A DNA stretch of 63,500 nt, filler included, from Folioceros fuciformis (Eukaryota), in assembly GCA_049999805.1 (NCBI GenBank). It is 3 parts of 3 records of this genome, joined end to end, with 100 filler letters (N's around TTAATTAATTAA, not from the genome) between each part and the next. Parts side by side here need not be neighbours in the genome. Positions count along the whole stretch, not along the records: positions 1 to 17,763 come from JBNGIO010003126.1; positions 17,864 to 32,036 come from JBNGIO010003127.1; positions 32,137 to 63,500 come from JBNGIO010003130.1. The stretch is one strand, 5' to 3'. The position numbers were made by a program, and so were the translations under genes. Numbering within the stretch: position 1 is the stretch's first letter; every line of letters begins with the position of its first letter. The notes under the pieces were generated by a model. The model was not told the DNA's origin. It did not search any database and worked only from the letters and a program-made list of their open reading frames with translations. Below are positions 7,575 through 63,500 of this stretch, in pieces.

Positions 7575-8617
7575 TGGTATCAAAGCTCGCATCTTCAAGC
7601 TCCGTAGGAGTGAGCATGTCAGAATGTTGAATAACGAATAGGCTATTTGCAAAGTAGGCATGCTGCCTTGTGGAGAGGATGGTTAGCACGTATTGCTTTT
7701 TTCTGACACAAAAACTTACAATGTCCAGTGGTATGGTGAGAAGTGTCAAAACACCTCAGCCTACAAATGCGTGCCTACAATAACAGAAAATTGCACAACT
7801 TAGAGTTATGTCTCTCATGCATGGAAACAACATGGCCTAGATGTCAAAATCACAGAAGACGTAGAAATGACTCCCAATTTAGGCCTCACCCTGAATGGAG
7901 GGTTTCTCAGTTTCAAACTGAATCGTCTCTGTCTCTGCTTGTGTTCCAGTTAGGTCAAAAAAAGATCATGATCCTCGGCATAATAATACAGGGCCAAGGG
8001 GATTCATTACAGCCCAAGCTCGATCAATAATCCTGGAAAATTCTGCTAGTAAAGTAGAGAGTCAAGTCTGTCTCATTCATGAGATTATATGCACTCAGAA
8101 TACCACCAAAAGGAGTGTTCAACCAACCTCCTACAGAATTCACATCGTGTCCTCTTTGTGGGATAAATTTGTCTACAATAAGAGATGACATGGCTAGTAG
8201 CATCGAAATGGAGATGCTCAGGCTCTAAGCCTCATGTGGCCTAGTTCCCCTGGTCGTATGTTGCAGGAGAGACTTGAGAGAGAGGCACAATTGGTTGAAT
8301 ACTTGTGAGGTCTAAGTGCAAAAACCTCACATGCAATCAATGAACAAGAAAATGAAAATGTGTCAGAAAGTGCAAACTCGCCTCTTCCTGACTATGATAA
8401 TATAGTGAACAAGGCTATTGATCCTGAAAGCTCAACCACCCAGTACACCACACCTGGGTTTACCTTCCACCCTGGAATTATCTTTGATCCAAGCCTGACC
8501 ACGCAGACCAACATTCCTGCAATTAGGATGTTCTGGTGGTGGAGGTGGCGGAGGTGCTAGTGGTGGTGGCAGAGCAGGAGGTGGCGGTGAGGAGGGTTTC
8601 CTCAAAACCAGCCACCA

Positions 8618-11600
8618 TTGAACCCACCTCATTATAATCCTACAGTCCAACACTATGTAGGGACGTCATATTTTAAGGAGAAGGATAGGTTCAATGGGTC
8701 AGACTTTGACATATGGGTAATGAGGATGAAGGGGTCACTTAAGAGCAAAGAGTTATGGAGAATTGTAGATCCGAATCAATTAGTACCAGCAGTTGGAGTT
8801 GCCACATGAGCAAAATGGGACCGGTTAAACGACCTGGCCCTGAATCTGTTAGTCACGGGTCTCACAACAAATATGCTGAGGCATGCTCAAGGATACACCT
8901 TAGCCAAAGAAGTATGGGGAGAGCTCACAATGCTCTACTCAAGTGACAACATGATGTCATTGGTTACTGCCTCCTCGCAGTTCAGAAACTTGAAGATGCA
9001 AGAAGGGGAGTCAGTTGAACATCACATTGCTACCTTCAGATCTTTAAGAGCAAAACTTTCTTGAGCAAGCGAAGAGCTTACATAAATTCTTGCCTGCGCT
9101 GCGCTGTTGCAGTCCCTTCCTGGGAGTTACAGGTCTTTCATTTCGACCTAGAATGCAGTCCTCAGATCCGCTCAAACTGCAGCAAGGATGTATGGAGGAC
9201 AAGTTCAAATAAGCTTCAATGAGATGGTGGGAGCTTTGCTCCAAGAGGAGGCAAGCCGAACCATACTGAAGACTCATCGTCCATAGGTTCTATATACCGA
9301 ACGTGGAAAGGGACCTAGACGGTACCCCACAAAACAACCGTGGAGCAAACCACAGCAACAAGCTACAATGTCAAAACCAAAGAAGGGCAAAAAGGCTGTG
9401 GGTAATTGTCATTGGTGTGGCATCCCAGGTCATTGGGAACGGGACTGCAAAAGGAAACTAAGTGGAGATCCCCGTCGCTCACCTGCAAGGGAAACACATG
9501 TGGTCAGAGGGACCACACCTTCTATTCTTAGAGTATGCCTCACAACCTTCACTTTAAATGAGAAATCGTGGTATCTTGATTCAGGGTTAACTGCCCACAT
9601 CTGCCACAACAGGCATATGTTTAGTACCTACACCAAAGCTGTAACAAAAGAGGTCGTTCTCCTTGGAAATGATTCACCCTGTACAATAGATGGCAGCGGA
9701 TCAGTTGTGATGCCAACTGGAAAAGGTAGGAGAATGATCTTGTTACAGGTGTACCACATACGTGCTATTCGGAAATACGTGGTATTGGTTATAAGGTTAA
9801 TGTGGCAGGAAAATTTCCAACTGGAATTTACAAACCAAAGCTGTCTCATCAAGGATCAAGCCACCAACTATGTGGTTGCCTCTGCAGAAGTGTGCACCAA
9901 TGATCTGTATATGCTCAGTAGCGTGAGTGAAGTTGAAACACAAGTACATGCTACAAGCACTCAATAGTCTAGAAATGATGCAGCAGCCCTATGGCATTCC
10001 AGACTCGGCCACCCAAATAAGAAGAGACTAGATGCGATGCTCCAAGACAACATGTATCAAGATGGCCTGCCCAAAACTCTGTTGGAAGCTGAACTTCCCC
10101 TATGTGAAGCCTATATTCATGGGAAGCAACATGATGCACCCTATACTCGGTTAGACGTGAGAGCATCTGAGGTATTAGCATTGGTGCATACAGATATATG
10201 TGGGCCCATTTCTGTAGCATCTTTCTCAGGGGCTAAGTTCTTTATCACCTTCCTAGATGACAAGTCCAGGCTGTGCTATACATATATAATTAAACATAAA
10301 GGTGATGCATTTAATATATTCAAGGAATATCTTATGCTAGTAGAAAGACAAACGGGCAAGACTCTAAAGACTCTTAGGTCAGACAATGGGGGTGAGTTTA
10401 CCTCTAATGCATTTCATAAGTTTTGCAAAGAGGCAGATATTGCTAGACAGCTGTCAATAGCATATGGGCACTCCTAGAATTCAGATGCAGAGCAAACGAA
10501 TAGGCGTATGTAGGAAATGGTGCAAAGTATGCTATGGCAAGCTGGTCTACCACTCAAATATTGGGCGGAAGCTATCATGGCAGTAACCTACATTCAAAAC
10601 AGGTTGCCTACCAAGTCTCTGGAGCACCAAACTCCATACGAAGTGTTCACGGGATGGAAGCCACCAATCAGCTATCTTCGAATCTTTGGCTCGCCTACCT
10701 ATGCCCTAGTGCCAAAGGAGAAAAGACTAAAGTTAGAATTTAAGGCTCGCAGGTATATTTTTATACCGAAGGAATTAAGGCCTATAAGCTATTTGATCCA
10801 GATACAAGAGCAGTGGTGTATGCTAGGTCGGTTACCTTTGACGAAGCAAGGCTGCTGCAAGGACCAGTGGGAGTTTACAAAAATTTGCCAAAACCACTGA
10901 AGGAGATTTTGGGGGATGAAGACACACATAACTTCTGGACCACCACTGAGAGTGTGTCTAGCCAAGACCTGCATTTGCAGCCACCATCACTCTTTGATCA
11001 TTCTGAGCATAGCAGTATAGACAAGGAAATCCAGGCATTGGATGATGCAGTCCAAGAGTCTAAAGGAGATGAGATCAAGGAAGGAGGAATAGAAGACGTG
11101 CAGGCTGCTGATCTAAATTCCTTTTCCGAGCTTGTGCAAATGCCGGAGGAACCTAGGTATCTGACCAGAGGTGAGAGATCTAGGAGGCCTCCGGATAGAC
11201 TCGTTCAGGATGACTTTAGAACTTCATCCAGGTCCAGGTCACAAGCAAGGCGGACAAGCGCGCCTGTACCAACACCTGCTCCAAGTGCTCCTATCGCAGA
11301 AAAGGAGGAATGTCAGGATGTGTCCATAGACACTACACTGAACACGGAGACACATAATGTAGATCTGGAACAGGATGACTCATCAATGTCATTAACCTTC
11401 ATGGCATAGGTAATGGCAGCAGATGGTCCTATGGACCCAGAGCCTCAAAGCCTTCAAGAAGCTATGCAAGGGCCAGAAAAAGCAAATTGGGAATAGGCAG
11501 TAAAATCTGAGAATGAGTCATTGCTGCAAAATAAGACTTGGGTTCTTTGTGATCTACCAAAAGGAAGGAGTCCAATATCTTGTAAATGGGTGTTCAAAAG

Positions 11601-13000
11601 GAAGATGGCAACAGACAGAATTGTGGGCAAGTACAAAGCAAGGTTGGTTGCCAGGGGTTTCAGCCAAGTCCTTGGACTAGACTTTCATGAAACCTTTGCA
11701 CCTGTGGCAAAATTCCAGACATTGCGCACCATCTTCACCCTGACAATACAACTCGATTGGGAGTTGCACATGATGGACGTGAAGACTACATTTCTTCATG
11801 GAAAGCTTGAGGAGGAAATCGTCATGCTTCAGCCACCAGGCTATGTTGAAAAAGGGAAAGAACACAAGGTTTGCAGGTTAGTAAAGACCATTTATGGACT
11901 TAAACAAAGTCCCTGTGCATGGAACACACGAATTCATGACTTCCTTGTTAATTAGAAGTTTTTGAGGAGCATTTTAGATGTGAGTCTTTACACTAAACAA
12001 GAAGGCATGGAGTACATCTACATAGTCATATACGTAGATGATCTGTTTATTGCTGCAAGTAGCACTCAAGCATTAGAACAACACTTAAACGAGAATTCAA
12101 AATGTCAGATCTCGGTGTCCTCGAATATTGTCTAGGTTTTCATGTAGAAAGAAACAAACAGAAGAGAACACTTTCCATACATCAGAGGAAGTATGTAAAT
12201 GACTGTCTGAGGAAGTTCGGACTCAAGGATGCGAAGTCATCCTCGACACCACTTCCGACAGGCACAAAATTGTGCAAGGCAATGTCATCAATGACAGATG
12301 TAGAAAAGCACGAGATGTCAGGAACTCCATACAGGAATGCGGTTGGGACCATTATCTATTTGAGCAATGTGAGTAGACTAGACGTGTCGTACGCAGTGAG
12401 CAACGTGTCCCAATTTTTGGAAATCTCGGCAAGGAACACTGGACTGCTGTCAAATGGATCTTCCGATATCTTAAGGGGATAGTCGGGTATGGAATTATGT
12501 ACAATGGCAACTCAACACAGAACCATAAGCTGCAGTTAGAAGCATATGGAGATGCAGACTATGCAGGAGACCACGACAGCAGAAAGTCTGTCTCAAGACA
12601 TGTGCTTACCTTGGCAGATGGCCCAGTGAGCTAGGGTAGCCGGAAGCAACCTACCGTTATATTGTCGACCAATGAATCTGAATATAGGGTTTTGACGATG
12701 GCAGCCAAGGACATCATATGGCAGCGAGCAATTCTTAAAGAACTCAATCAGACACAGACAGAAGCCACTCGCCTGAACTGTGAGTCAAGGAGCAATCGCC
12801 CTTGCTCAAAATCCGGTATTTCACAGTCGAACCAAGCATGTCGCTATAGAATATCACTTCAACAAATTGTCTTAGAATACGTTCCTACACATAATAATCT
12901 TGCAGATATTTTGACAAAACCTTTGCCCAAAGATCTGCACAATAGACATCTGGCTAGGCTAAACATCCTAGATGTGGAAAGTATGCATAGGAAGACTTAG
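8618..13000 (+). pseudogene. gag-pol of element A with multiple stops and frameshifts
   Basis: gag KDRFNGSDFDIWVMRMK; zinc knuckle CHWCGIPGHWERDC; protease WYLDSG; integrase LVHTDICGP and LRSDNGGEF; RT CKWVFK...KARLVARGFSQ, YGLKQS, YVDD; RNase H ADILTK. Confidence 0.95.
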
Positions 13001-13214
13001 CCAAAAGGGTTGAAGTAGAAGCGCAGTCGCATATCTACATGAAAAAGGCACTTTCCTTGCTTGAAGGCTGTACAAGATAGAACACTGGAAAGCTATGGAC
13101 TTCATCAACAAAAGAAGCAGTCAAAGGATCAACGAAGTGAAGCCGCCGTCCACAAACACCGGAATTAAAATCAATGACCTAACTCAATGCCGCGACGTAG
13201 CTGTTGAGTGGGAG

Positions 13215-13431
13215 TAGTGGAAATTTAGGGCACGTTTTGTCTAGCCCTAAATTATATTATTATACAACTAGCTACTTAGGGCACGATTGAGTTACTAGTC
13301 ATTAGTCATGACTCGTCATAGACGGTCACGACCCATAGATAAGCGGTGTGACAGTTCGTCACATAAAACTTTTAAACATTCTGCCTCCGGCGCTATAATT
13401 TTAATCTTACACAATCCTTGTAAATTCTCTA
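13215..13431 (+). repeat. 3' LTR of element A (217 bp)
   Basis: Direct repeat of 7359-7574, preceded by the polypurine tract. Confidence 0.95.
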
Positions 13432-16400: not shown

Positions 16401-17042
16401 TTGTTGATTAAATAACCTAAAATGCTGATATATTCTTAACACATCCTTGAAGATGTGTGATCAAACCTTAAAAATATACATGGGAAGTATTGTTCTCCTT
16501 AGTCCGCCTCCAATTTAGGTTGCTAGGATTACTAGAAGCCTTCATCAAACTAGGTACATCAACGCATCAAAAGTCGACTTTGCGTGCACCAACCATTTCA
16601 ACCCAAGTGCCAAATATTGAGCTCCATCTAAGGGGGGGAGGGCTTGGTAATCTTATACCCACTACCCTAGCATTCGTGGAACCTTGCTTGATTAGCTCAT
16701 GCATCTATTGTTTCCAGATTAGTTCATACTAGAAAACATTATCACCCTTAACCCAATAAGGAATATGTGATGTATACAAGTAAGCACTAGATGAAGTTGC
16801 ATCATTGTTCTTGATAAGACTCTTAGAGATGAGTAGTGTGTATAAATTCATGTAAAGGGGTTTATCAAGTCAAAAGAAGTTTAATGGAAATTTCAATAGT
16901 TTCTTACCATTCATGACATTTCAGCGTTATTCTATACGTTTTTGTAGTGTCTCAACGAATCATTCCCATTTGCTTTGAGAGAGAAATTTTACTCTTATAG
17001 GTATGTCATTAGTTGGAAGCACTACATATGGTGTAAACACTA

Positions 17043-17168: not shown

Positions 17169-17559
17169 TGTTTTTGATAGAAAGTTATGTTTCATGAAAT
17201 TTAGGGTAGCATTTATTGTATACCGTACTATTGCATGCCAATTTCTAGTGATATTGTTAAACACCTACCATTGTAGGTTATTGATTCATATGAATGTTCC
17301 TTTTTTTTTTAATTTTCTAAAAATATGATTTTTTACAAGTGCATAAACAATATAAAAAACATTCATATCTTAAATACCTCTACAACAAAGCTAATTCATA
17401 GGTTAATAACTATAATTATAAAGTTTGACCATTTTTCCTCTTTCAACATTCGGAAGGCTTTAGACTAATATGCCAATGACAAAAGTACATACTAGGAGTC
17501 TACTAATGCATGCAAGTGCCTATTTGGAGGCGAGTTGGTCATGCAAATGCATGTCAAGA

Positions 17560-17763
17560 GCCCACTAGTGTGACAGCATACTAGATAGTGCCCACTTGTG
17601 TGGCAGCATACTAGATAGTGCCCACTAGTGTGGCAGCATATTAGATAGTGCCCACTAGTGTGGCAACATACTAGATAGTGCCCACTAGTGTGGCAGCATA
17701 CTAGATAGTGCCCACTAGTGTGGCAGCATACTAGATAGTGCCCACTAGTGTGGCAGCATACTA
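17560..17763. repeat. 30-bp tandem minisatellite (GCCCACTAGTGTGGCAGCATACTAGATAGT), ~7 copies, running into the gap
   Basis: Near-identical contiguous units without spacers. Confidence 0.95.
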
Positions 17764-17863
17764 NNNNNNNNNNNNNNNNNNNNNNNNNNNNNNNNNNNNN
17801 NNNNNNNTTAATTAATTAANNNNNNNNNNNNNNNNNNNNNNNNNNNNNNNNNNNNNNNNNNNN
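17764..17863. other. Assembly gap (100 bp) with artificial TTAATTAATTAA linker
   Basis: N44-TTAATTAATTAA-N44, identical in structure to 32037-32136. Confidence 0.97.
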
Positions 17864-18579: not shown

Positions 18580-20785
18580 TGTTAAACCCCATGGGTTATT
18601 ATAACCACAGCCACTAGTTACATATTTACCTAGATTAGGGTTAGATGTATATTGCAGGGTTATTCATAGTAACACTTAGGGTTTAGTATTTACGGTCAAC
18701 TCATTGTGAACATTTTGTTATTATCATCATTATTATTGATTGTCAAGTTTATTTTTTCTCTACTAGTTTTGACATGGTATCAGAGCCCCAAGGTTTTAAT
18801 ATGTGATTTTGATCTAACATTGTCAATGCTAGTAGTGCGAGGGCTGATTGGGCACAAAATCCAGTAACCATAAATTTATGGCACATGGTTCATGTGCCCA
18901 ATATACCTTCTTTACCTGTATTACAATTGTCAGTTAACATTCATTATGGAAAAGGAAAAAAAAATTATTGCCATTTTTCTGGTTATTTAATTTCCGCTGC
19001 ACTCTTAGAGAGATATATAGAAAATATCTACGGTGCAAAATGCCTCGTAGGTACAGAAATGGGGAGCCAGGCATGAGAAGTTTCTTCAACTTCATCACTA
19101 ATAGGTATATCAGGGAAAGGGATCGCCAGTGGCACTCAACCCAAATTCCCACAAATCCCTCAGTGACAACAACTTCAGAAGTCCAGGCTTCCACGTGTCA
19201 CAAGCCCCCAACCCGTCCAGGCTATCCTAACACAAAGGCTAGATTCAAGATATCACAACAGGAGAGAAGGAACTCACAAAACCCACAAGAGAATCAAGAG
19301 CAACCATTTAGGCACAGGGACCATGCAGTGGAAGCAACTAGAACTGCTCTAGAACAACTCTGGCATGCCTGTCTCGGTCATGCTAACAAGGATAAGTTGG
19401 TTAAGATGTCCAACCTGGAATGTTTCTGGGAACCCCTTCCCAAGTATTTCAAAGACCTTCCCCTTTGTGATGCATGCATAGTAGCCAAGCAAAAAGAGTT
19501 ACCTTTTTCTGCTACGTTGGCTCAAAGGTCTTTTGCTATACTTGACCTAATACATGCAGACATATCTGGGAAGATACATGTCCAATCCTTAGGAGGTTCC
19601 CTCTACTACCTCACACTCACTAACGATTTAGTCGGTATTCTTGGACATACCCACTCAAGAGAAAATCAAACACTTTTCTACTATTCAAAGAGTGGGTCAC
19701 AATGATTCAAAGACAAATTGGGACTCACCTTTGCTGCTTAAGATCTGATAATAGCACAGAGTTTGTGAATGGTGCTTTTGATGAGTTCTTGCAGCTCAGG
19801 GTACGATCCGCCAACTCAGTATTCCGTATACTCAACAACAAAATGGGGTAGCAGAACGACGCAACCAAACTCTGCTTAGTATGACCCAGAGTATGCTGGC
19901 TTGGTCAAGCCTTAGCAAAGCCTGCTTGGCAGAGGCAATCATCACTGCCACTTACATCCTCAACCGGCTACTCACTTCTGCAGTTCTTGACCAAACTCCC
20001 TTTGAGATGATATGGAAACACAAACCTAGTTTGCCTCACCTTCGAGTGTTTGGATCACCTGCCTATGCTTACATTCATGAAGAACAACGCAGGAAGCTTG
20101 AGGATAGGGCTAGACCTCTTATGTTTGTGGGTTATGGTGAGGAGACCAAAGCTTATAAACTCTATGACCCTCACTTCAGGTCTTCCATATTTGCTCATGT
20201 AGAGGAAAAAAACTTTCAGGACTCCCATTTTGAAGAGCAGAATGAACAGGTAGTGTTTTTTTGGGCGAAGATGCGAGTGAATTGGCATAGTATGGAAATA
20301 ATATTTGGGTATTTATACCCAAGTCTCCTTGGCCCTTGGTGTTTTGATAGGATGGAGTGACATGACTGGGGAGAAGTGTGCGCAAGAGTGTCCTTGGCCC
20401 TTGGTGGTTCGAGGGTACTTAGGTGTCTATATATGCACCCCTCCCCCTCGGGGAAATAAGAAATGGGAAGTGGGGGTAGGAGCTTAGGAAGTGCGGACTT
20501 AGGCAAAAAGAACGGGGTGTTGAACTGGGCGACGGTAGCTGGTCGGGCGACCGTCGTGGAAGGGGAACCGGCGGTAGCCCAACCGGCGGCATAAAACCCT
20601 AGAGAGAGACAGGGAGAACTTGGGCAGTAATCGGGTCAGGAGCGTCCGTGAGAATGAGAGTAACCGCGGGCGCGACGACGGTCAAGAGCGGAACAGGCAC
20701 TAGGTGGCGGCGCGGAGTAGGGTGACAGGCGACCGCAGGTGCAGGAGGGCAACGGTGTTCGGGGCGTGGAAGGAGATCAAGCAGG

Positions 20786-22833
20786 ATGAGGTCTCGACCA
20801 GAGTTGTTGCCAGGAGTACTGGTGCTGGAGCAGGAGGAGGGAGAACCGCCTGTCCCGAAGATCGATGTGCTCCTGTGGCCCAACATGGAGCACTGGAGGA
20901 CCAAAGCCGGAGGGCTGGTCGAAGAACTAGGCCTCGGGTTCATGAACCAGAGGTGGAATTATGCAGCACCACTGCTGGTCAGGGAGTGCGCCCTGAAGAT
21001 GAGGAAGCCCATCTGAGAGGAGGGAATCCATGGCAGACCCCAGGAATGCAATATGGAGCTGGTAAGACAGGTGTATGGCCGCGATTAACAGGAAGAGGGG
21101 GGATTGGTGCTAGAGTCCTTGAAGAAGCGTGGTGGCACAGCAAACGCCGAGGTGCTGTTCAAACCTGGCACCAAGAAGGAAGCGAATGGCTGGCTGATCC
21201 GTGATATGGCCAACCCCCAGCTGATGGGTTTGGCCAGGTGGTTCCTGTGCTTCCTGCAGGTTTGTAAGCAGGATTATCTGTCTCATCAGATGCTCCTGTT
21301 TGTGCATGAAGTCGTAAAAGGGAGCAAGGTGGATTGGGGGAAAATCCTGTATGCCAGGATGGACGAGGAGAGGCAAAATCTGACTTTGGCCCCAACCTTC
21401 GATGATCTCCCCCTTCCTAGTTCACATCTACTGCTATGCTAATCTTGTGTCTGAACTGGAGGTCATGGTCTCATTGCATATGTGGAGACCATGAAAGGGA
21501 GGTGAAGTGAAAGGCCACTGATCCAGTGGGAGCCAACTCCAACAGCTGGGAGTCGGGTGGTGCGGACAGTTCGGAGGAGGAGACTTCCACCATGCAGAAG
21601 AGGAAGGCTGGGGTAGGGAAGAAGACTCGCCAAGAAGAGGAGGGCCAGCCGCCAGATTGCCAGAGGAGGAAGTGGATCAGCACCACAGGAGGCAGCCCTA
21701 GAGCAGGCTGGGCAGGAGCAGGGGCTACTCAGGAACCTACAGCTAAGGCGCCAGCAGACCAAGAGCCGGCGGAGCAGGAGCCGGGCGAAGAGGAACCAGG
21801 CGCTCCCCAGGAGCAGATGCCGGAGATGGAAGTGGTCCCTTCTGAGGTGAAGGGTGGATTAGGGCACGTTCTTGAGCAGGAAGTCTTTCCAGAATGGGAG
21901 GATGTTTTTAGAAAAATTCCTCAGGAAGATAGGCTGCAGATAGAGGAGCTCGAAAAGTTACGAGCACTGTTGAGAAGGCGGATAACCCAGAGGGGAATGG
22001 CTCCGGTGGGGTCGCAGGAGGTGAATTTGCCAGAACTAACCTCAGCCATGGTGCAAGCACAAACGGACGTGTTGGACCAGGTGGCCAGGGCATTGACCTG
22101 GCTAAGCAGGCAGGCGGAGAAGGAGGCCGAGGCCCGAAGTAGGGCGGCAGAGGCAAGAGGAAAGGAGTCCAAAGCCTGGAGACAGCTGGCGGGGTCTGAA
22201 ACAGCATGATGGCTCTTGGAAGAAGAGTAGTGGGTCCTGAGCGAGGGCAAGGCACAAGCAGAAGAAGAGGCATGCTAGGCCAAGGCAGAGATCCAGGCGC
22301 TGAAGGAGCAACAACAGTCGTTCCTAGCTCAGGTGAGGGAAGCCCATGAGACTAATTTGGAAATACAGCGGGAAGTGGCTAAGGCTCAGGAGCAGGAGCA
22401 GGAGATGGCTGCGATGGAGCAAATCCAAGAGCTGGCCGACAAGTACAAACATGCTCAGGACGAGACCAGGGAGCGAGTAAAGGGAAAGGGTAAGGCTGGG
22501 CGTAGTAGCCAGATGGCGGCACCGGTAGCCAAAGGGGCTACCGGTAGTCGAGCAACAATTTCGGTAGCTGAAGCGGCTACTAGTAGTCTTGCGACACCTG
22601 AGGTAGCCGAAGGGGCTACCAGTAAAGGAGGGATGACGCCGGTAGCCGAGGCCACAACCCCGGTAGCAGAAGAAGTGATGACGAAGGCGCCTGACCCAGG
22701 CGTTCCAGGAGGGCGACTCGCACCAGGCGGACCAAGCCGGAAGCAACAGTATCTAAAGGGATGGAGGACACTCAGGTACCCCAGGAGAACAGGGGACATG
22801 CCGCCCGAAGTAGCCCAAGGGAGGAAGGGGTAA
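20786..22833 (+). pseudogene. ORF1 of the 4.8-kb insert: helical N-terminal domain, low-complexity linker and long coiled coil
   Basis: ORFs 20786-21016, 21104-21442, 21526-22209 and 22333-22833 join through in-frame stops (several CAG>TAG or CGA>TGA type) and one frameshift. Contains the motif GSKVDWGKILYARM, E/Q/A-rich heptads and PVAxGAT repeats. Confidence 0.7.
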
Positions 22834-23213
22834 GCACCTCCCTTATGATAGAGGGTCAGATTATGCTGCAGTATGAGGAGGAGGCCTCTTATGTGCCGGG
22901 CCTCAATGTGGAAGGGGTCCGAGTTCGGAAGCTGTTTTTGTATGTACGTATGGGCACAAGAGGGACGCGGGGCTACGGCCTGCAACTGAGGACTTGCAAG
23001 GGCATCTACTACTACCGCTGGCGGGTATGGGGGTTGCCTCATTGCTATTCCGAGGCAGTCCTGGAGGAACTGACGGAGGAGGAGGCGCAGTAGTGGGTTG
23101 AGCGGGAGCCTGTCCCCATACTCAGCAATCGGCGATGGAGGAAGGAGAGGCATTCCCTGCGACGGGACCCACCTATGCCGCCACCAGCAAGGGCCCACGA
23201 GCAGCAGGAGTGA
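22761..23213 (+). pseudogene. ORF2 of the 4.8-kb insert (~150 aa, one internal stop), unknown protein
   Basis: ORF 22761-23093 continues in frame past a TAG to TGA at 23211-23213. The core looks beta-rich (VRVRKLFLYVRMG...YGLQLRTCKGIYYYRWRVW). Confidence 0.45.
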
Positions 23214-24280
23214 AGTAGAATTCCTGTGGGAGGACCTACCTGACCAATAGCGGGGTAGGAGGGCCAGAGGAGGACCAATAGGGGGAAGGTCGCGACAACT
23301 AGGAGGGAGGCACCGACCTAGGGTAATTGCAGTCTAGACTAGTTTCCTTTTAGATTGTTTTGCTTGGACCTAAGCTGCTTAGAATTTAAGAGCGCTGTCT
23401 GACCCCTAACAGACTTTATGGCGGAAAGACCGCCACTACCGTGTACAAGATGCCAGCTTGGGGCCTCGGGAAAATTAGCGAGAAACCAGCCCGACATTCC
23501 GACCTTGCAGAAGCCTAGCGATGGCCGTTACTGGACGGGAGGTCTAGGCAATCGAGCGCACATAGTGTTCTGAGGGTGTGGGCGCAAGTGGTGGATGCTC
23601 TGTAACCACGAACTAGGAACGAATCGGGAGGAGAGACCTCGCCAAGTGGGAGACGAGTTACGCAGCTATTCCTGTGACGGTTACGTGGGGTGGTGAGGAG
23701 ACCGGAGGTCGAATCCACAAGTTCGGAGTGGAAGTGGATACCCCTTTCCTTAGCCTTCGATGACCTACCATTCCTTCAATTTCAGAGAGAAGGGGAGGCC
23801 CTGGACGGGCGAGTTGGAGAGGAACGCCGAGAGTCGCGAGTGGATTGAGAAACGGGAGTGTGTGAGTGAGAGCGCTGAGGAACGCGCATTGATAAAGTAA
23901 GAAGGCGGTGCTGGTGACTGCTGTTGTGGGAGTTGTGAGTGTGACGATGGTAGAAGGAAAAAGATGTGTTCCTAAATGACTGTAGCGACTGTATGTGAGC
24001 TTGTGGTATGACAAAGCCGAGCTGGGGATCGTAAAACCGGGACGGTGAGTGCGTACACAGCGGAGATGGGGTCACGGCTGATCTGTGAACGAATGGAGTA
24101 AGAGGGAGTCGGAAGCAAGACGTGACTATGCGCTGATGGGATGCTGTGAAGTGAAGAAGTGGTATGTATGTGTGCGTTAGACCAAAACGCAGGGACGCGT
24201 GAGTGACTGTGGGAAGCCTAGCCTGAGATTGTGAGTAGAATGTGGTAGTGGGTAAGAGTGCGCTGACTGATTAAGCCACC

Positions 24281-24304
24281 GTGTGTGTGTGTGTGTGTGT
24301 GTGT
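24281..24304. repeat. (GT)n microsatellite inside the 4.8-kb insert
   Basis: Run of ~12 GT units. Confidence 0.9.
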
Positions 24305-27300
24305 ATGCGTGGGTGTGTCGTCGGGCGCAGCAAAGCATAAGGGTTCCTGAGGAACCTAGGAAGAGCTAGGGGCGGACACTAGTAGAGCGCTGGTAGGTGC
24401 GAGTGTGTATGAGTTATGTGCCCTCGAGTCCTGGGAGGGGTAGTGAGTAGATGGGAAAGGGGGAGTCGTGTGAGAGGAGTAGTCGCGAGTAAGAGAGAGA
24501 GAGGATCGAGGTGTGTCACCTCCGTCAGGAGGCATAAGCCGGAAAAATAAGTCGTTGGGTAAATTAGAGAGAGAGAGAGTGGGTAGAGAGAGATAAGAGA
24601 GAGAAAGAGAGAGAGTGGGACCCACCAAGGTAGCCAGTTGGGTGACCCTGGTGGAAGGGCAACGGAAGTGGCTGTGCTTAGCGGTAGTCGCGGGGGCGAC
24701 GGGGTAGCCGAGGGACGGTAGCTGGGGTGGCTCGCTACCCGATAGTCGAGTAGACTGTCAGTTAGTCTAGGGCTGAGGTAGTTGAGGGGTAACGGTGGTA
24801 GCCGAACCAAGAGGGGGCCAAGGAACCGATAGGCGAGTGGTGGACGAAGAAGCCTGGCCTTGGGTAGTAACTGACTTTGTTAGAAAAACCCATGTTATTT
24901 AACACAACTCATTCCCTTGGGATCGAATCCCAGGTGCTATAACGATATAGAGGGTTTGCGTGGACCTCGTTGCACCTCCGGGTGCAATATTTTCCCCCAC
25001 AGCTCACAGTGTCACATTTAAGGGATTGCAGGTTCCTGCTTCCATAGCTACCTCTTCCTCAGCGTCTTCTCCTCTGGACCCTAATGATTTTGATGATTTC
25101 CCCTCTGAATATCCTCAAGATGCTGCATATGAACCCCCTCCTACTCTTCACTTTGATCAACCAGCTGGCGGTTCAGGGGTGGAAATGCAGCTCAATCACC
25201 AAGATCAGTGGCAACAAATACATATTTGCCTGCACAACTTGTCCCTGTGCCTCCACAAGCAACACAATAGTTATCTACAGCACCTGGACAGTCTACACTA
25301 GAGGAGGACAAGGACCAGGATGATGATCCTGCAATTTCTATACCTGATGTTGATGTGGCGGACTTTCCAATAGCTGAGGAACATGAGCACGAGGATAGCA
25401 CACATGCAGACACACTGTCTATACCATTTGAAACTGAAGACACTACCATGCACTTGACGAGCCAGAAACTGTTAAGCAACTAGCTGTTGAATTTGAACCT
25501 ATTGTTGAAGAGCGCAAGTACCCCAGCAGATCTCGTCCAAGGGAAAATTGGAACACAAGACCTGATGAACCTGAGGACTTCAAGATTCCTCTATCTGCTC
25601 GACTTTGTGAAGCTCTCTCCACCAGCACCATCCACCCAGCAGAACCTCGCACATATCAGGAGGCAATAATTGGTTAGGATAAACATCATTGGATTCCTTC
25701 AATTCAAGATGAATATAACTAAGTGACTAAGAATGGAATTTCGGAGCTCTGTCCTTTACCTGCTGGGAGGAGGACGGTTAGCTGCAAGTGGGTATTTAAA
25801 CACAAGCTGAATGCTCAAGGAGAAATAGCACGATACAAGTCACGTTTGGTTGCTTGGGGTTTCTCCCAAGTTGCAGGTGTAGACTTCAACGAGACGTTGA
25901 GCCTTGTTGTCAAGACACAGTCAATCAAAGTGATGTTAGCTCTAGTACCTGCCTGAGATTGGGATCTTGAACAAATGGATGTTTCAACTGCCTTCTTGTA
26001 CGGAGAGCTTGAAGAAGACATATACATGGATCAGCCTGAGGGTTTCGTGGATCCTGAACGTCTAGATTGGGTTTGCAGGCTCAAGAAAACTCTATACGGC
26101 TTGAAGCAAAGTGCTCGTGAATGGTACAAGTGTATAGACAAGTACCTCAAGTTGATAGGCTTCATCCAAAATCCAGCTGATGCCAACGTATACATATATT
26201 CCAAGGGAGGTTACTTGGTCATCCTAGCACTTTACATTGATGATGCTATACGAGCATCCAACAACAGAAAGCTGCTGGATTGGGTGAAGGTATGTTGCAC
26301 AAGCAGTACGACATGAAAGACATTGGACAACTTACCTTTATCCTTGGCGTTCAGCTGCTGAGAGATAGACCCAAGAGAACACTTGTCCTGCACCATACCA
26401 AGGACATTGAGGAAACTCTTCGACATTTCAACCTGCAGGATGCTAAGCCTATAAGCACACCAGGAAGTGTTGGGGTTAAACTCTCTACTCAATAGAGTCC
26501 ACAAGACGACTATGAACGTGTAGCTATGAGGCAGATTCCTTACCGGCACATTGTGGATTGTCTCAACTACATTAGCTGCTGGACAAGGCCGGACATCGAG
26601 CACTCCGTTAGTGCAGTTTCTCAATACCTTGAGAATCTAGGCCCTGAACACTGGATGGCAGTTAAAAGAACCCTCCGATACCTTAAAGGCGCATCTACCT
26701 TTGGACTATGCTTCCAGGGCACTAACAATGCCATCACTCTTGAGGGATACGCAAATGCTGACTAGGCTACAGACCTAGATCAATGCAAGAGCATCTCTGC
26801 GTATTGCTTCATGCTATCTGGTGCAGCTGTTAACTGGAGTTCGAAGAAATAAGCATCCATAGCCCTTTCATCCATGGAGGTCGAATTTAAAGCTTTTACG
26901 GACTCAGCCAAGGAGGCTGAATGGGAGCGCACTTTTCCAGCTGGCTTGGGTTTTCCGCAGTCAATTCCTACAACCATCTTCTGTGACAACATGTCTACTA
27001 TCGCTTTGGTTGGGAATCCTCGTTTTCATGAGCACACCAAACACATAGAAATTCACCATCACTATGTCAGACATTCCGTGGAGCAGAAGGTGATCAAAAT
27101 CCAGCACATATCAACGGAGCTGAATACAAATGACGTGCTTATTGTTAGAGTAGGTTAAATACATTAACTTACTTACAGGTTTAGGGCTAGACAGTTGGAA
27201 ACCCTAACCATCGCCATGTCTTGGTGACGTGACCGAGAACGCTGAACAACAACTTTTCTTTTTCTCACGCCGTGACACCTGTCTGATCTGTCTCATGGTA

Positions 27301-27552
27301 TCAGAGCACGAGTGATCCGCGATGTGCGCCATCTTTTCTGGTGCACGATTATGTTAATTTTAGGCGTCGCCAATCAGGCTAGCGACGCCACCACGATCCC
27401 TGGCTTTAATACCTTCTACCTATTTTAATCGGTCTATTTTCTAAACTTTTTGCACGTGATTTCTTTGTTGCAAAGAGCAGATCTGTAGGCACAGATGCAC
27501 GAAGGCGCCTTGCCTGCAGCATGCATATACACGAGGCTGTTAGATTCTTCAG

Positions 27553-27792
27553 ATGCCAAACTTTAGAAAACAACAGCGATTAGCGAGAAGGGCACAACGT
27601 CATCACATGCTCACGGAGTGGCTAGCAGCTAGGGACAGAGCTTATAGGCTTACCTTGGGAGACACGTGGTGGCAACAAATTTGGGTGCGTATCTGCAACA
27701 TCTTGGAACTAATGGCTACCAACATTCTGCAAGGCTACCCCAGCCTTGACGGTTATGACTGGAACCATCTCAATGTTACAGACCTCCTCTGA
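27553..27792 (+). CDS. Arg-rich upstream ORF of element C (79 aa), between PBS and gag
   Basis: Open ATG-to-TGA frame MPNFRKQQRLARRAQR...; positional equivalents exist in elements A, B and D. Confidence 0.45.
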   Translation: MPNFRKQQRLARRAQRHHMLTEWLAARDRAYRLTLGDTWWQQIWVRICNILELMATNILQGYPSLDGYDWNHLNVTDLL

Positions 27793-28558
27793 CAAGTTGC
27801 TGCCCCCAAGAATTGCTTATCCTCTGTCTTGCTTCAAATCTATGTATGCGCCTCTGCATCGCAACAAATGTTCCACTTGAACACAATAGAATCAGATACC
27901 TTGACGGCATAATGCTATAAGTTGCATCATATTCAGTCATGGCCCAGCAGCAAATGAACAACCCATCTTTGCACTTTAATTCAACCATACCTAAAGAGGA
28001 CAAATTCGATTGTACTAATTTCCATGTTTGGAAATTTTGCATGATTGAATTGTTTAAGTCCAGAAAGCTCTAGGCTCATGTCCATGGCACAGGGAGTCCA
28101 CTAGTCCCTACTCCAAAGCCACCTGCATCAGAACTAGATGATGTGGCAAAATGGGAAGAAAATGATGAGTTGGCCAGAACGATGCTTCATTTCAGCGTCA
28201 AGAGTACACACATCAATGTATTCCAAGGCACATAAGAACTTGCATCAGATTGGTGGAAACAAGTGCTAATGGTCTATGACTCTAGAGATCTGATGCTGCA
28301 AACTTACGTGCTTCGCCAATTCACTGGCCTCAAGATGTCTGATGGAGAGCCAATTGATAAACATGTGCTAGAATTTCAAAACTGAAGGGGTAAGATGCTC
28401 TCCGCTGGTTTTGACTTGGAGGAAGATATCATGGCCGTCTTCTTTCTAACCACGCTTCCTGAATCATGGTCAAGTGTGGTACACGCCCTCCAAGATGTTC
28501 CTATACTCACATTGAACAGAGTTATTGCTGCCATGCTTAGTGATGAGTCTAGGAGAAG

Positions 28559-30583
28559 ATTTATTTTATTTTTTCCGCGAAGAAAACATCTGATTATTCG
28601 CAGTTTAGGCTACACCAACGGCATATCAATTGCGTCCACAATTGAATACCTTAGCCTGGACTCAAAATCTAAGCTGTAGAAGCGAGCAAAGCTGAACTGC
28701 CCTATGATCAAGAGCCACCCACCCCTTATGAGACTTATCTGCCCCACGGGTAGGAGTACTCCCATTGGTCATTGACCCGTAGGAAGCCTGCAAGTATCCA
28801 CTCTCTCCGCCTAAACTTAGAGTGAGTGGACGTTTGAATACTTTCCGTGACCACAAGTACCTGCTCCCAGATGCGCCATAGCAAAGCTTTCCTAGCGACC
28901 GGCTCACTCCCACCATATACCATTGCTGTCCAGTTTTGCCACAAGGAAAACAGTGATAGGGACCAAACCACTCCCCACCATTGGAATTTGAGAAGTGGCC
29001 CCCCTACCTATCTGTCCAGCCCAAATAAGGCATCTTGCTCAGTAACCAAGCTGGCTCTCTCTAGGAGAAGTCTCTGTAGCCACCTACCGACTTCGTTCCC
29101 AATACCCTGCGCATACTCGCAATGAAAGAAAATATGTTGGCTTTTATGCGGAGCGCCAACGTTGCATAGCCTGCAGCATTCCTCCCCCGTGGCCACCAAT
29201 AGCCCGTCCCATCGGTCTGCGTTAGGCAAGCAAGCTTGGAAAAAACACCAGATGGTAACCCTCACCTTAGGGGGGATCCCTAGGGTCGACCACAAGAGTT
29301 TGATAGTTGCCTTTTGCCGACGCTGGGAGAGCTGCAACCTAGGAGCCAGTCGACTTCGCCGAGGACCTTTTTGCGCTCGCACCAATCGGAGGTACACGGT
29401 TGCCGACGAAAAATTGAAGAGTGACTTCAAAGTGGCTTGCTTAATTCCTGCACTCCCAGGCCACATATATAGGTCGGAGCGTATCACTAACTCCCAATTC
29501 TCCTTCAAGCGAAACCAACATCTTACAGGACGCTGTTGCATGACCTGTTTCCGGTTGCCTTGCTCTTCCTGGGTAAGCCAAAAACTGGATCGTCTAGCCC
29601 TGTACAATATGGTAATCCCTCTGAGGGTGACTCCACCCATCGCGCCTTCAGCTCTACCTTTTTCCTCTAGCAGCCCTTCTGTGTTCAGCATCCTATAAGA
29701 TAGGGTTCCTTCCTCATCTATCCTTGATGTCACTAGCACCGCTCTGTCAAAATCTGGGAGGGGCTCGTCCTGCTCCTGGTCGGAGCCACCTGCTCTATTG
29801 TCCATGGGGTAAGCTCCCCACATATTGATGCCAACCTGAGCTTCCTATAGCAGTGCTAGCTTCACATCCTCGGCCATCCCTTCCTGGAGCCAAGCAAGCA
29901 TAAGTCTCACGTGTCGAATAGGGATCCCAAACTCTTCCCGCGTCTCCTCCGCTGATTTCCAACCAGCCTCTCTATAGTTCCACAGGTGTCCGAGCTGCAC
30001 AATGCCGCTTCTACTAGTGGAACCAAAGATTTGAGACCGGTTCACTCGGGAAAGGAAATTCTGAGACCACAGCCCCTTAAAACCTTGGAGAGGGAGCCCC
30101 AGCACATCGTCCCTATTCCTAGGCTTGGCATAGATAAGAAAGGTTTTCACCTCCAGGAAACTGCGCCAGATTGAAGCAAAAAGAGGGGAGCAGTTCCTGG
30201 TATCTAACAGGGGCCTATTCTCCAGGAGGTTGTCCATAGACCTCCGCCCCCGGGCGACCGCTTGAGAAAGCTGCAAGTGTTGGGTTAACCAGCTTTTCCA
30301 AGGGTATCCTGTTGGTCCAGCTGCCTTCAGCACCCATTGCGCATGTAGTCCAGGAGAAGAATTGCAAGCACATCTATTTCTAGCAGCCGTACAGACCAAG
30401 CGTTGTACATGAATTGACCTATAAGAGGTCGAGGGCAAGGCCATCCTTTTGTCAGAGGACGAGGAGGACGTGGAGGTCGAGGAGCATTCCGACCCCAACA
30501 GTTTGGTAGCACCAGGCCAAAGCCTCCATGCGGGTTCTATGGCTTGCAAAACCATACATAGGAAGTATGTCGAAAACCACTGT
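28559..30583 (-). mobile_element. 5'-truncated L1-type LINE (3' part of ORF2) inserted in the gag of element C
   Basis: T-rich tail on the + strand at 28560-28574. zf-RVT-like motif LW...IPPKVRVTIW...CRLC...HIFFHC in ORF 29008-29823. Probable TSD TAGGAGAA at 28550-28557 and 30584-30591. Confidence 0.85.
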
Positions 30584-32036
30584 TAGGAGAAAGTGGCCCA
30601 TCTTTTGGCCAATTAGCTGTTACGATGAACAAATACAGCAGAGCATTCCTTACCCAAGTTGTGAAGACTCCACAAGCGTTTTCTGATGACACTAAATTAC
30701 AGTACTCTTGTAATGTGGTCTCATGCTATGCCAACCAGCCAACACATGCTTGGTACATCGACAATGGTGCCTCACAACACATGACTCCTCACTTGGCCTA
30801 CTTTACAGAAATGAGGAGCTCCACACCAGCAGAGTACATGTGCTTAGGAGACGATACCAAGCACCACATTGAAGGTCAAGGGACCATTAGACTTGACCTT
30901 ATGCCATCTCATCACATGGAGATACTTGATGTGTTATATGTCCCGGGACTTACTAAGAATCTGGTCTCGGTGAGGAAAATCGATGAGTATGGATGCTATA
31001 TATGCTTTGGCGGAGGCAAATGTGTTGTAGAGTCGAGTGTAGGGACTCTACTTGCCACTAGACATCTGCAAAATGACGATCTGTATCACCTCGATCTGCA
31101 AATAGCAAAGGCCAATGTCGTTCAGTCATCATCCAAGTTTGCATAGCCATCTCAAACATATTTATGGCACCTCCGCCTTGGCCATACTAAGTATCGGAAG
31201 CTAGTCCATATGTACAAACACAACATGGTGGACGGGCTCACCTTAGATAAGCTTGATGAGTTGGAGTATGCAAGTCGTGTGTGCTTGGTAAACATAAACG
31301 AACTCCCTTTCCTACAGATGTCTCTACCAGGGCCACAGAGGCACTTGGATTAGTCCACAGCAATATGTGTGGGCCTATGCCCAAATCTCTTGGCGGGAAG
31401 GAATATTTTCTTACCTTTATTGACGACTCCACTCAATTTTGTGTAGTCTATGTCCTCCGCCACAAGTTTGACATGTATTCATGCTTCCTAGAGTATAAAG
31501 CTTGGGCTGAATTACAAACTGGTTCCAAACTCAAGATGCTTCGCACCGACAATGGTGGTGAGTTTCTCTCTGGAGAGTTCAATGCCTTCTGTACACAACA
31601 AGGCATTGTCAGACAGCTTACAAATGCATACACACCCCAACAAAATGGGGTAGCTAAACACAAAAATGCTGACCAGGAGACGTAAGCTTCGAGCATGCTT
31701 CAAAATGCAACCCTGCCAAGAACCTATTGGGCAAAGGCTGTGGCCTATGTCACTTATATTCAGAACCGCATTGCTCATAGTAGTGTTCCAGAGAAAACTC
31801 CATACAAGCTCTAGACGTGAAGGAGACCAAGTGTAGCTCATATGCGAGCTTTCGGCTCCATAGTGTACGTTTGTAAGAAGTTCGAACCTAAGTCGAATGA
31901 ATGCATTTTTGTGGGCTTCACCGAAGGCATTAAGGGCTACAAGCTGCTGAATCGACAAACACAGAAGACGACACACTCAAGAGACATGATGTTCGTCGAA
32001 GGAGTTGAGCCAAACCTCACAGTGGGAGACGTAGCC

Positions 32037-32136
32037 NNNNNNNNNNNNNNNNNNNNNNNNNNNNNNNNNNNNNNNNNNNNTTAATTAATTAANNNNNNNN
32101 NNNNNNNNNNNNNNNNNNNNNNNNNNNNNNNNNNNN
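32037..32136. other. Assembly gap (100 bp) with artificial TTAATTAATTAA linker
   Basis: N44-TTAATTAATTAA-N44. Confidence 0.97.
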
Positions 32137-33945
32137 AGTCTACTTTGTTCTTCCTGGAAGAGGGCCCCTATCACCTCGTCTAAGGTGATAGTTACTTGTC
32201 TCCCAGCAGCACCAGCAGCCATAGCCTGTCTGAGGGGAACATTGTGTGCAGATACGAAATTCTGGTAACTGGGTGGCAGGCTAGTGAGCAATTGAGCTAT
32301 CACATCCACCTCATCCATAACAGTACCAAGAGAAGCAAGTTGGGCTCGAAGGTGTCTAAGTTTGCTGGTATGAGCAAGAACTTTGTCCCCTTCTCGCATT
32401 TTCAGTCCATAAAACTCCATGCGTAAGGCACAAAGAGTAAGGACATTATTAACCTTATATTGTTTTTCCAATTGTGACCAGATCTCACTGGCCTTGGTAA
32501 GAAATTCAATTTGAGGAATAAGATCTTCAGTCAAGCCAGAGGGCAATAGCTATGCTGTTAGCATGGGCCCATTTATCCTTGTCTCCTTGAAGAGCAGTGG
32601 AAGATGGTTCAGGAAGAGAACCATCCACAATGCTCCAAACTCCTCTAGCCAGCAGCGTGGATTTCATCCGCACTCTCCACACCTCGTATTTGTGACCAGT
32701 AAACCTGTCCTTTTCTTTTAATTCAGATGTAAAGATAGGGGTATATGATGCAGAAGATGATGGTGGTGGATTGACTGTAGCCATGGTTGTAGGTTGGCCT
32801 ACGTTCCAGATAGTTTGGATGAAATCCACCGATTCGTTGATCCTGAGGTTAGAGAGTGATTCGGCTAAATCATCTAGCCAGTCGTCCATACATGGTTGAC
32901 TAACGAAATGATTTATTTATGCAGGGATAAAGGAAAGGGCACTAATAAAGGTCATAAAAAAAAAAAAGGCATGCTCACGGCGAAACGACAGCCTGAATAG
33001 GTATTTTCCATAAAAACCCTAAATTAAAATGCCCTTTCGCATAAACACCGGTTCACGCGAGAAACCCTAACGGTTTACTTCCGATTTTTCAGGAATGGGC
33101 AGCAGGGTGGGGAGGAACAATTCCATTGCTGGCTGTGCCATGAAAAATGGCACCCACTGTGAGTCCAGAATGATTGAGGCGCTGAAATTCTTGAACAAGA
33201 AGATGCAAGCGCCCACTAATTTGCGAAATTTTGGCAAAGATTTGATCAATCCTAGTAAGGATTCTCCGAGTCTGAAGTTTATCATCAACACCTTGCATAT
33301 GAATTACATAGGCCAGTTGGTCACATAAATTTCCAATGTGTCGGTCTAAGAAATCACGGTCAGACTCTATACCAATGCCAAAATTATGAAAATTCAGATC
33401 AGCAGTAGTCTGCCGTGATTCAAATACACTAGATTGATTTGCTTCCCTTGTCTGTAAAGGTCTAGGACGACCACGCCTACGGGAAGGCATTCTAATGTAG
33501 ATCACAAGCAAGACAATACTTCATCTGTTAAAGATAAAAGATCTGATGCATGATCAGTAAATTAATTTTTCGTTTCGTTGTATAGAAACTTCATTTCTTC
33601 TTCCTGCTTGGCAGCGGAAGCACTAAAAAAAAAAAAAAAAACCGACATCAATCCATAATTTAGAGGCTAGGATTGATTACAATCAGAATCAACCGAGAGA
33701 TCAGTATAAGTGGCTTGGCCATAAGAATTAATAGCCATAGCCATTTTTTTATTTTATAGCTCTGATACCATGTTAAAAATGGAAGAGCAGGAAAAAGAGA
33801 ATAAAGTTAAAATATGATAATTAAAAATGAGGCTCAAAAGTGTTTTAAATACAATAAGTGATGGCATTTCACTAAACGGTATCCCCTATAATAAACTAGG
33901 TTAAATAATAGCGAGTTAATGTTTATTCAGCCATTATTCCCAACA
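32137..33945 (-). mobile_element. 5' part of Ty1/copia element D (LTR, PBS, upstream ORF, gag), cut by the gap
   Basis: Minus-strand LTR TGTTGGGAAT...TTTTAACA at 33945-33771; PBS at 33770-33759. gag at 32889-32137 (KEKDRFTGHKYEVWRVRMK...LLTSLPPSY...GALFQEE) with one frameshift near 32535. Confidence 0.9.
33089..33490 (-). CDS. Arg-rich upstream ORF of element D (133 aa), between PBS and gag
   Basis: Intact frame MPSRRRGRPRPLQ..., with an amphipathic or coiled-coil-like C-terminal half (ILTRIDQIFAKISQISGRLHLLVQEFQRL). Confidence 0.55.
   Translation of the reverse strand: MPSRRRGRPRPLQTREANQSSVFESRQTTADLNFHNFGIGIESDRDFLDRHIGNLCDQLAYVIHMQGVDDKLQTRRILTRIDQIFAKISQISGRLHLLVQEFQRLNHSGLTVGAIFHGTASNGIVPPHPAAHS

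Positions 33946-57056: not shown

Positions 57057-59104
<2,048 letters not shown>

Positions 59105-62875: not shown

Positions 62876-63500
<625 letters not shown>

Follow-up and report, generated by a model that had tools for sequence, protein, structure and literature searches.

Do some plant Ty1/copia retrotransposons carry a gene of their own between the site where the primer binds (PBS) and gag? The question is raised by a 63,500-nt stretch of DNA from Folioceros fuciformis (GenBank assembly GCA_049999805.1; parts of three records joined end to end), hereafter called the window, which consists of repeat-rich, plant-like DNA. Four elements in the window, named A to D, each contain an open reading frame (ORF) in the leader, and ORF1 is our label for this 5' additional ORF between the PBS and gag. 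A sequence-only reading of the window had proposed it as a lineage-wide accessory gene. We report here the presence and position of ORF1, its non-random character, its conservation in the family of element C and its predicted architecture. We think that ORF1 is probably a real, fast-evolving 5' accessory gene of these Ty1/copia elements, a judgement that we hold with moderate confidence.

Leader ORFs of four copia elements

The 12-mer TGGTATCAGAGC, which we take to be the usual copia PBS matching the initiator tRNA-Met (tRNA-iMet), was found at four sites in the window when up to one mismatch was allowed (Table 1). Only 0.45 sites were expected, and none of 100 shuffles of the window reached four. 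In the part of the survey of Neumann et al. (2019, PMC6317226) that was available, the 3' end of tRNA-Met is given as the PBS type of most copia elements. Protein domains were assigned by Pfam scans of three-frame translations in which stops were replaced by X, and judged by these domains each of the four PBS sites heads a Ty1/copia element. Element A has Retrotran_gag_2, Pol_BBD, gag_pre-integrs, rve, SH3_retrovirus and RVT_2 in this order, which is the copia order, and gag, Pol_BBD, gag_pre-integrs and rve were found in C. Element B has an integrase (19325-20129) followed by a reverse transcriptase (25678-26280), with gag and protease absent, and D, on the minus strand, has the leader and gag only. 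No further copia elements were found in the window by tblastn with the gag, protease-integrase and reverse transcriptase of A.

In each of the four elements, the longest ORF of the leader is ORF1, which starts 192-280 nt past the PBS. In B, C and D it begins with Met-Pro, at +265, +257 and +280, respectively. These distances, which had been given in the sequence-only reading together with an ATG of A at 7832 (+257), were recomputed and are exact, and our translations agree with the N-termini and lengths given there (MPRRYRNGEP in B, 79 residues in C, and MPSRRRGRPRP with 133 residues in D). For A, it had been supposed that one extra G had to be removed before an arginine-rich protein could be read. 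This correction is not needed. Translation from the ATG at 7832, which lies out of frame, gives M-A-stop, and PRCQNHRRRR is already in frame with the ATGs at 7767 and 7821, within an intact ORF of 87 codons that starts at +192.

The N-terminal region of the predicted product is basic in each element. Four to six of the first 15 residues are Arg or Lys in B, C and D, and five in A if counted from the Met at 7821; the arginine-rich motif of A occupies residues 25-33 of the whole ORF. Over the first 20 residues, there are six Arg or Lys in D, six in C and four in B. The AT-hook, a DNA-binding motif, has an Arg-Gly-Arg-Pro core with basic flanks. RGRP is present at residues 6-9 of D ORF1 and absent from A, B and C, and Pfam reported no AT-hook.

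ORF1 is a sense ORF separate from gag-pol and ends before gag in A, C and D; gag is missing in B. As the sequence-only reading had stated, the ORFs of C and D end upstream of gag, which has its own ATG. In C, the stop codon (27790-27792) and the gag ATG (27939) are separated by a spacer of 146 nt, and in D the stop codon (33089-33091) and the gag ATG (32889) by 199 nt, with ORF1 and gag in different frames in both elements. In A, ORF1 ends more than 500 nt upstream of gag. The leaders, taken as the distance between the PBS and the homology to gag or pol, are about 550 to 1020 nt long, which is unusually long for Ty1/copia, and the four of them showed no nucleotide alignment or common motif beyond the PBS.

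Comparison with shuffled leaders and background elements

As a null, 5000 dinucleotide-preserving shuffles were made of each leader. An ORF of at least 60 residues, starting at +190 to +285 and with at least four Arg or Lys within 12 consecutive residues of the first 35 (the basic-ORF criterion), was present in 1.2%, 1.5%, 1.1% and 0.8% of the shuffles of A, B, C and D, respectively, and in all four real leaders. For a Met-Pro ORF at +250 to +285 with a minimum of 60 residues, the figures were 0.08-0.26% of the shuffles and three of the four real leaders. Both sets of limits were set post hoc, and the joint probability is only indicative; a product of the single values overstates the case. With position and basic N-terminus found in four of four leaders against about 1% in shuffles, the earlier claim of an ORF that the four elements have in common, distinct from gag, was upheld.

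Chance ORFs in decaying leaders, with no common origin and no function, would be the simplest explanation. The post hoc choice of limits speaks for it, as do the absence of relatives of the D ORF and the finding that the longest leader ORF reached at least 69 residues in 12-26% of the shuffles. However, the combination of position and basic N-terminus was seen four times out of four at about 1% per leader, and the Met-Pro ORF three times out of four at about 0.1%. Such an ORF is also absent from the 42 background elements described below, and C ORF1 has two full-length homologues. A chance origin of the leader ORFs is unlikely, and we give a very low probability to chance as the whole explanation.

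The background set consisted of 80 metagenome contigs encoding copia integrases 38-47% identical to that of A, from which we obtained 42 distinct elements that share the PBS and extend at least 1.5 kb beyond it. An ORF of at least 250 residues was present in 40 of the 42, with a median start at +93.5; in 29 of these 40 the start was no later than +260. The Gag of the background elements begins directly with the conserved gag N-terminus. Among the 42 elements, none had a Met-Pro leader ORF and none had a separate leader ORF of the ORF1 kind. The basic-ORF criterion was passed by one (L039), and that ORF overlaps gag starting at +52. Therefore, the long leader with its ORF is not a general trait of copia elements.

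An integrase tree was built from A, B, C and 77 of the 80 metagenome loci, three having been dropped as short or duplicate matches. A, B and C fell on long branches in one unresolved group (Shimodaira-Hasegawa-like approximate likelihood ratio test, SH-aLRT, 84), and A and B paired at a value of 84 that carries a long-branch warning; this placement is compatible with one origin or with several. An ORF1-like ORF was absent from the tree neighbours of A, B and C (L028, L048, L075, L005, L027 and L070). One of these metagenome contigs, L075, has its PBS at 602 and its polyprotein ORF 2146 nt past the PBS, and this very long leader has no ORF1-like ORF.

Conservation in family C and predicted architecture

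Relatives of C ORF1 were found in the protein databases. The first, P0006, is 63% identical to C ORF1 (E=2e-25), and the second, P0007, which came from a profile search, is 65% identical to C ORF1 and 75% identical to P0006. All three proteins are exactly 79 residues long, align without gaps, start with Met-Pro and have their stop at codon 80. Invariant residues occupy 45 of the 79 columns, including RLARR.QR and LELMATN.LQGYP.LDGYD. The invariant basic block comprises R5, K6, R9, L10, A11, R12, R13, Q15 and R16, and Arg or Lys is found at positions 5, 6, 9, 12, 13 and 16 in three of three proteins; P0006 and P0007 have seven and nine Arg or Lys in the first 20 residues. Other invariant residues are W23-L24, A26-R27-D28, Y31, W40-Q41-Q42 and W44. 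Conservation is strongest in the C-terminal half, with the stretch from L51 to D69 almost invariant. When the C ORF was allowed to drift neutrally to 64.5% amino acid identity, the start, the frame and the stop at codon 80 were all kept in 3.9% of 3000 runs, a value obtained with substitutions only (about 50 in 240 nt) and one that indels would lower. These comparisons support the view that C ORF1 behaves as a conserved protein-coding gene.

The structure of the C-family protein was predicted with AlphaFold2 from the three-sequence alignment. The model is a helical hairpin with helices at residues 2-35 and 37-60 and a mean predicted local distance difference test score (pLDDT) of 80, and the basic block lies on the first predicted helix. 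For D ORF1, predicted alone, residues 1-40 are disordered and basic, followed by helices at 41-65 and 71-108 (block pLDDT 66-82). Hence, the two best-preserved ORFs, C and D, are predicted to share an arginine-rich N-terminus followed by an alpha-helical hairpin. Relative searches and structure prediction for both peptides had been suggested in the sequence-only reading. The predictions agreed for the two; the searches gave P0006 and P0007 for the 79-residue C ORF and no credible relative for the 133-residue D ORF.

Sequence comparison between the families points to a weak similarity of the ORFs. When B and the C family were aligned without gaps from the shared Met, the score was better than that of 99.6% of shuffles (p=0.004), and hhalign paired residues 23-34 of B with residues 23-34 of the C family. 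Residues 79-92 of D aligned to residues 38-51 of C with E=0.047. No cross-family signal was obtained for A.

Other searches gave no relatives. Pfam returned only sub-threshold noise for the four ORFs, apart from the integrase part of B. ESM Atlas had no usable match to D ORF1 or P0006, a Foldseek search of the PDB with the C-family model gave nothing below E=4, and sequence searches of the PDB returned noise only (designer repeat proteins and a designed binder). An ORF1 profile detected no relative in viral contigs or prokaryote genome contigs, nor did an integrase profile in viral contigs. A gag motif scan of metagenome contigs produced 323 pattern matches and no relative. A HMMER search of 1.84 billion representatives with D ORF1 gave a single match, P0005, a 2110-residue internally repeated protein aligned in eight weak stretches at 22% identity, which we judged to be spurious.

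Leader RNA, alternative readings and other features of the window

The leader of C folds more stably than its shuffles (z=-2.1, with 1 of 20 shuffles equally good), as does that of D (z=-4.8, 0 of 20). Contigs of four coded sequencing runs were aligned to D only. The leader and ORF1 of D have a depth of about 12, the level of the unique flanks, and the gag core has a depth of 180-430. It follows from this depth that the D leader has no close paralogues. No diverged copies of the D leader at 80% identity or more were found among the contigs of the four runs. Run X4, possibly RNA, aligned only to 34199-34257, outside D ORF1. Nearly all differences of run X3 on 32137-34600 were C>T changes (148) or G>A changes (141), the pattern of bisulfite-converted DNA, and its variants are therefore uninformative on sequence variation.

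One DNA contig of run X2 (depth 7.6) skips positions 33492-33589, and a neighbouring contig of depth 7.2 retains them. On the element strand, this is an AT-rich 98-nt segment bounded by GT and AG that ends one base 5' of the D ATG, and its removal would put the ATG at +176, in frame with D ORF1. The skip is a weak hint of a leader intron, an intron-less copy or an allele lacking the segment.

Could ORF1 be an N-terminal part of Gag, either an upstream exon spliced to gag or an extension separated from it by decay? The skipped GT..AG segment could mean a spliceable leader, an AG stands directly 5' of the ORF1 ATG in C and D, and the frame of B runs from MPRR... into pol. The joint in X2, however, is supported by a single contig, whose shorter side is 26 letters long, and its place is upstream of ORF1 rather than between ORF1 and gag. 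The frame of B reaches 221 codons because gag and protease have been lost, so that it enters the integrase. In C and D, ORF1 and gag are in different frames 146-199 nt apart, and in the 42 background elements Gag starts directly with its conserved N-terminus. The sequence-only reading had itself named a mere gag N-terminus as the finding that would overturn it, and this is countered by the end at codon 80 in all three proteins of family C. We consider an origin of ORF1 as part of Gag quite improbable.

A regulatory upstream ORF (uORF) or a cis-acting RNA element is the other reading to be weighed. An ORF or purine-rich motif at a fixed distance from the PBS would then control gag translation, by re-initiation or shunting, or packaging, and the peptide would have no function. 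The leaders are long, ATG-rich and structured, the peptides are unrelated between families, and Arg codons give the start region a purine-rich character, all of which would suit such an element. On the other hand, the whole 79-residue peptide of family C is conserved, the C-terminal half most strongly, and the position of the stop is kept as well. The products of C and D are both predicted to be helical hairpins, and the leaders share no nucleotide motif beyond the PBS. This reading is unlikely in our judgement.

Several points weigh against ORF1 as a gene. All four element copies are damaged. A word-indexed search of 5.8 billion proteins found no relative of D ORF1, and the D leader stands at about single-copy depth. 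The ORFs of A, B, C and D have no significant pairwise similarity by BLASTP or Smith-Waterman alignment, and homology across all four is not demonstrated by these sequence comparisons. The database that yielded P0006 and P0007 contains called ORFs, and broken copies of this length are undetectable in it, an ascertainment bias that inflates the drift argument; the two were compared with C ORF1 as proteins. The clustering of invariant columns in family C is marginal (p=0.058). Each leader has 4 to 8 ATGs between the PBS and ORF1, with further ATGs between ORF1 and gag, and cap-dependent scanning would therefore reach neither ORF1 nor gag efficiently. Finally, ORF1 is known here at the DNA level. 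The proposal of a lineage-wide accessory gene was thus borne out in part: the gene reading is strong for family C and statistical for the set, and neither the lineage-wide spread nor the function gained support.

The coordinates of the elements are collected in Table 1. An LTR (long terminal repeat) pair was detected for A only, with the PBS about 30 nt past the mapped repeat; no second LTR was found in the window for B, C and D, each of which is truncated or interrupted. Element C is incomplete, with an insertion between gag and protease/integrase, and ends at the N gap at 32037-32136, which also cuts D. The gap sits between the converging C and D, and the C-D junction is not assembled. This gap and the other one (17764-17863) are alike, each consisting of 44 N, 12 bases and 44 N. 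The zf-RVT domain is a zinc-binding region of non-LTR reverse transcriptases. One such domain lies on the minus strand at 29103-29325, within C between gag and protease, as a nested fragment resembling a long interspersed nuclear element (LINE). In B, a GC-rich segment of about 5 kb (about 20300-25600; 54-57% GC, strong positive GC skew) separates the integrase from the reverse transcriptase. No Pfam domains were found in its three plus-strand frames, and it probably represents a nested insertion.

The plant telomere-like 9-mer TTAGGGTTT, which resembles the 'telobox' cis-element, occurs five times in the window, compared with 0.5 expected and 0 of 100 shuffles reaching five. Four of the five sites are within copia elements. 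The sites of B and C are about 90-100 nt 5' of the PBS, reversed in C, and the two sites of D are between ORF1 and gag.

Two other repeats were observed. Tandem copies of a 30-nt unit, 92-94% identical, occupy 17527-17763 and run into the first N gap. At 57097-63369 there is an LTR-bounded element with 300-nt terminal repeats, 95% identical and 5973 nt apart, which holds, at about 59400-60600, a long array of repeats of 24 nt (some of 18 nt). No homology to the gag, integrase or reverse transcriptase of A was found in it by tblastn.

Table 1. Positions of copia features and telomere-like sites in the window.
Feature	Position	Strand	Basis or remark
Element A 5' LTR (portion detected as repeat)	7359..7545	+	3' copy 13215-13401, 95% identical
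Element A PBS	7575..7586	+	motif search; TGGTATCAAAGC, 1 mismatch
Element A leader ORF	7767..8030	+	intact, 87 codons; second in-frame ATG 7821; RCQNHRRRR from 7836
Element A gag homology (Retrotran_gag_2)	8597..9376	+	several stops; clear gag ATG not identified
Element B PBS	18775..18786	+	motif search
Element B leader ORF, N-terminal part	19040..19324	+	MPRRYRNGEP...; frame open into integrase (19325-19705)
Element C PBS	27296..27307	+	motif search
Element C ORF1	27553..27792	+	79 codons + stop; starts MPNFRKQQRLARRAQR
Element C gag	27939..28565	+	from ATG (MAQQQMNN...); 3 in-frame stops
Element D gag	32137..32889	-	ATG 32889 (MDDWLDD...) to gap; one stop, one frameshift
Element D ORF1	33089..33490	-	133 codons + stop; MPSRRRGRPRP...
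Element D PBS	33759..33770	-	motif search
TTAGGGTTT site	18676..18684	+	
TTAGGGTTT site	27199..27207	-	
TTAGGGTTT site	33014..33022	-	
TTAGGGTTT site	33062..33070	-	
TTAGGGTTT site	48089..48097	+	

Possible role and known systems

If ORF1 is an accessory gene, as we favour, its product would be a small basic protein of 79-133 residues with an arginine-rich N-terminal motif and a predicted alpha-helical hairpin, which diverges fast between families and is retained within a family. Roughly the first 250 nt downstream of the PBS are probably set aside for cis-acting RNA functions (priming, dimerisation or packaging, for example), and this would explain the near-fixed start of ORF1. We infer that the arginine-rich helix may serve as a nuclear-localisation motif, an RNA-binding motif or both, and a nuclear and/or RNA-binding function appears most likely. 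The protein might then act on the structured leader RNA of its own element as an element-encoded cofactor, for example in export, in packaging or in the choice between translation and packaging. For any particular activity, our confidence is much lower than for the gene itself.

Several known systems resemble ORF1 in part. Ogre elements, of the Ty3/gypsy superfamily, have a large separate ORF 5' of gag, also called ORF1; it has the same location, but is large and belongs to gypsy, and the two are likened here by description only. Rev of human immunodeficiency virus (HIV) and Rex of human T-lymphotropic virus (HTLV) are small regulators of complex retroviruses with an arginine-rich motif. Like these, ORF1 would encode a small protein that has an arginine-rich helix close to its N-terminus, together with a predicted helical hairpin, and its setting, a long structured leader in an RNA that needs to leave the nucleus unspliced, would be plausible. 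Unlike Rev and Rex, it lies 5' and not 3' of gag. No fold or sequence match of ORF1 to regulators of the Rev/Rex type was found by Foldseek or by PDB sequence searches. Residues 44-53 of C have a hydrophobic pattern that by eye resembles an export signal. One could imagine that some plant Ty1/copia elements are 'complex' retrotransposons, in which a Rev/Rex-like adaptor encoded 5' of gag binds its own leader RNA and governs its export or packaging, perhaps from a leader-spliced message. We regard this idea as a long shot.

The leader of cauliflower mosaic virus (CaMV), a pararetrovirus, contains very short ORFs whose peptides are not known to be conserved. Like the copia leaders described here, it is long and structured, with many AUGs upstream of the main ORF. 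Unlike its short ORFs, ORF1 encodes a peptide of 79-133 residues that is conserved in one family. The structured 5' leader of plant pararetroviruses is mentioned in the accessible part of PMC12786077, where the export of plant retrotransposon RNA is described as unstudied and the CERV protein of Cer1 is cited as an element-encoded factor needed for nuclear export of genomic RNA.

The closest analogue found, by comparison with the available part of PMC11728184, is the set of 5' additional ORFs (aORFs) of Tekay chromoviruses in Ty3/gypsy (sunflower Tekay 13-2 and rice RIRE3/Retrosat-2). As described there, 500 of the 523 members of the sunflower family retain the aORF; its product combines a nuclear-localisation motif with three alpha 'coils' and long stretches of disorder, and no amino acid similarity to the grass aORFs is seen. 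Both the Tekay aORFs and ORF1 are sense ORFs in the interval from the 5' LTR to gag. Both have a basic motif of the nuclear-localisation type, a few well-predicted alpha helices and disorder, and both, as far as family C shows for ORF1, are conserved within a family with no amino acid similarity between families or species. The Tekay proteins are about 400 residues long in sunflower (PMC11728184) and belong to Ty3/gypsy, whereas ORF1 belongs to copia and is much smaller. No sequence relation of ORF1 to the Tekay aORFs was found by Pfam or by protein-database searches with D ORF1. Extra genes 5' of gag are known from gypsy-type elements, and ORF1 is a copia case.

No description of a short copia ORF between PBS and gag was found in the literature searched, which left subscription journals and supplementary tables outside, so that an earlier description is possible; to this extent the impression that the ORF had not been described was correct. 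As far as the available part of Neumann et al. (2019, PMC6317226) goes, extra ORFs of plant LTR retrotransposons were surveyed with a cut-off of at least 250 codons. ORFs of 79, 87 and 133 codons fall below this threshold, and ORFs of 79-133 codons were therefore unrecordable. The same source describes copia as structurally uniform apart from the PBS type and the SIRE ORF, eORF-3'F, which is the characteristic extra ORF (eORF) of copia. Its copia eORFs are, like ORF1, additional, highly heterogeneous between elements and without known domains; eORF-3'F is 3' of pol, unlike ORF1. In the part available, the review of Vicient and Casacuberta (2020, PMC7264820) covers 3' ORFs, and upstream ORFs appear only by citation of Steinbauerova et al. 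(2011).

Copia elements are usually treated as carrying gag-pol only, and the 250-codon cut-off hides small genes. If our reading is right, the copia life cycle would gain an element-encoded trans factor in the form of a small, conserved basic protein whose gene lies in the leader, and RNA export, packaging, control of translation or silencing evasion are steps in which it could take part. The parallel with the Tekay 5' ORFs would then point to convergent acquisition of nuclear, basic and helical cofactors in both superfamilies. Family C offers a concrete 79-residue protein family with invariant residues that is testable at the bench.

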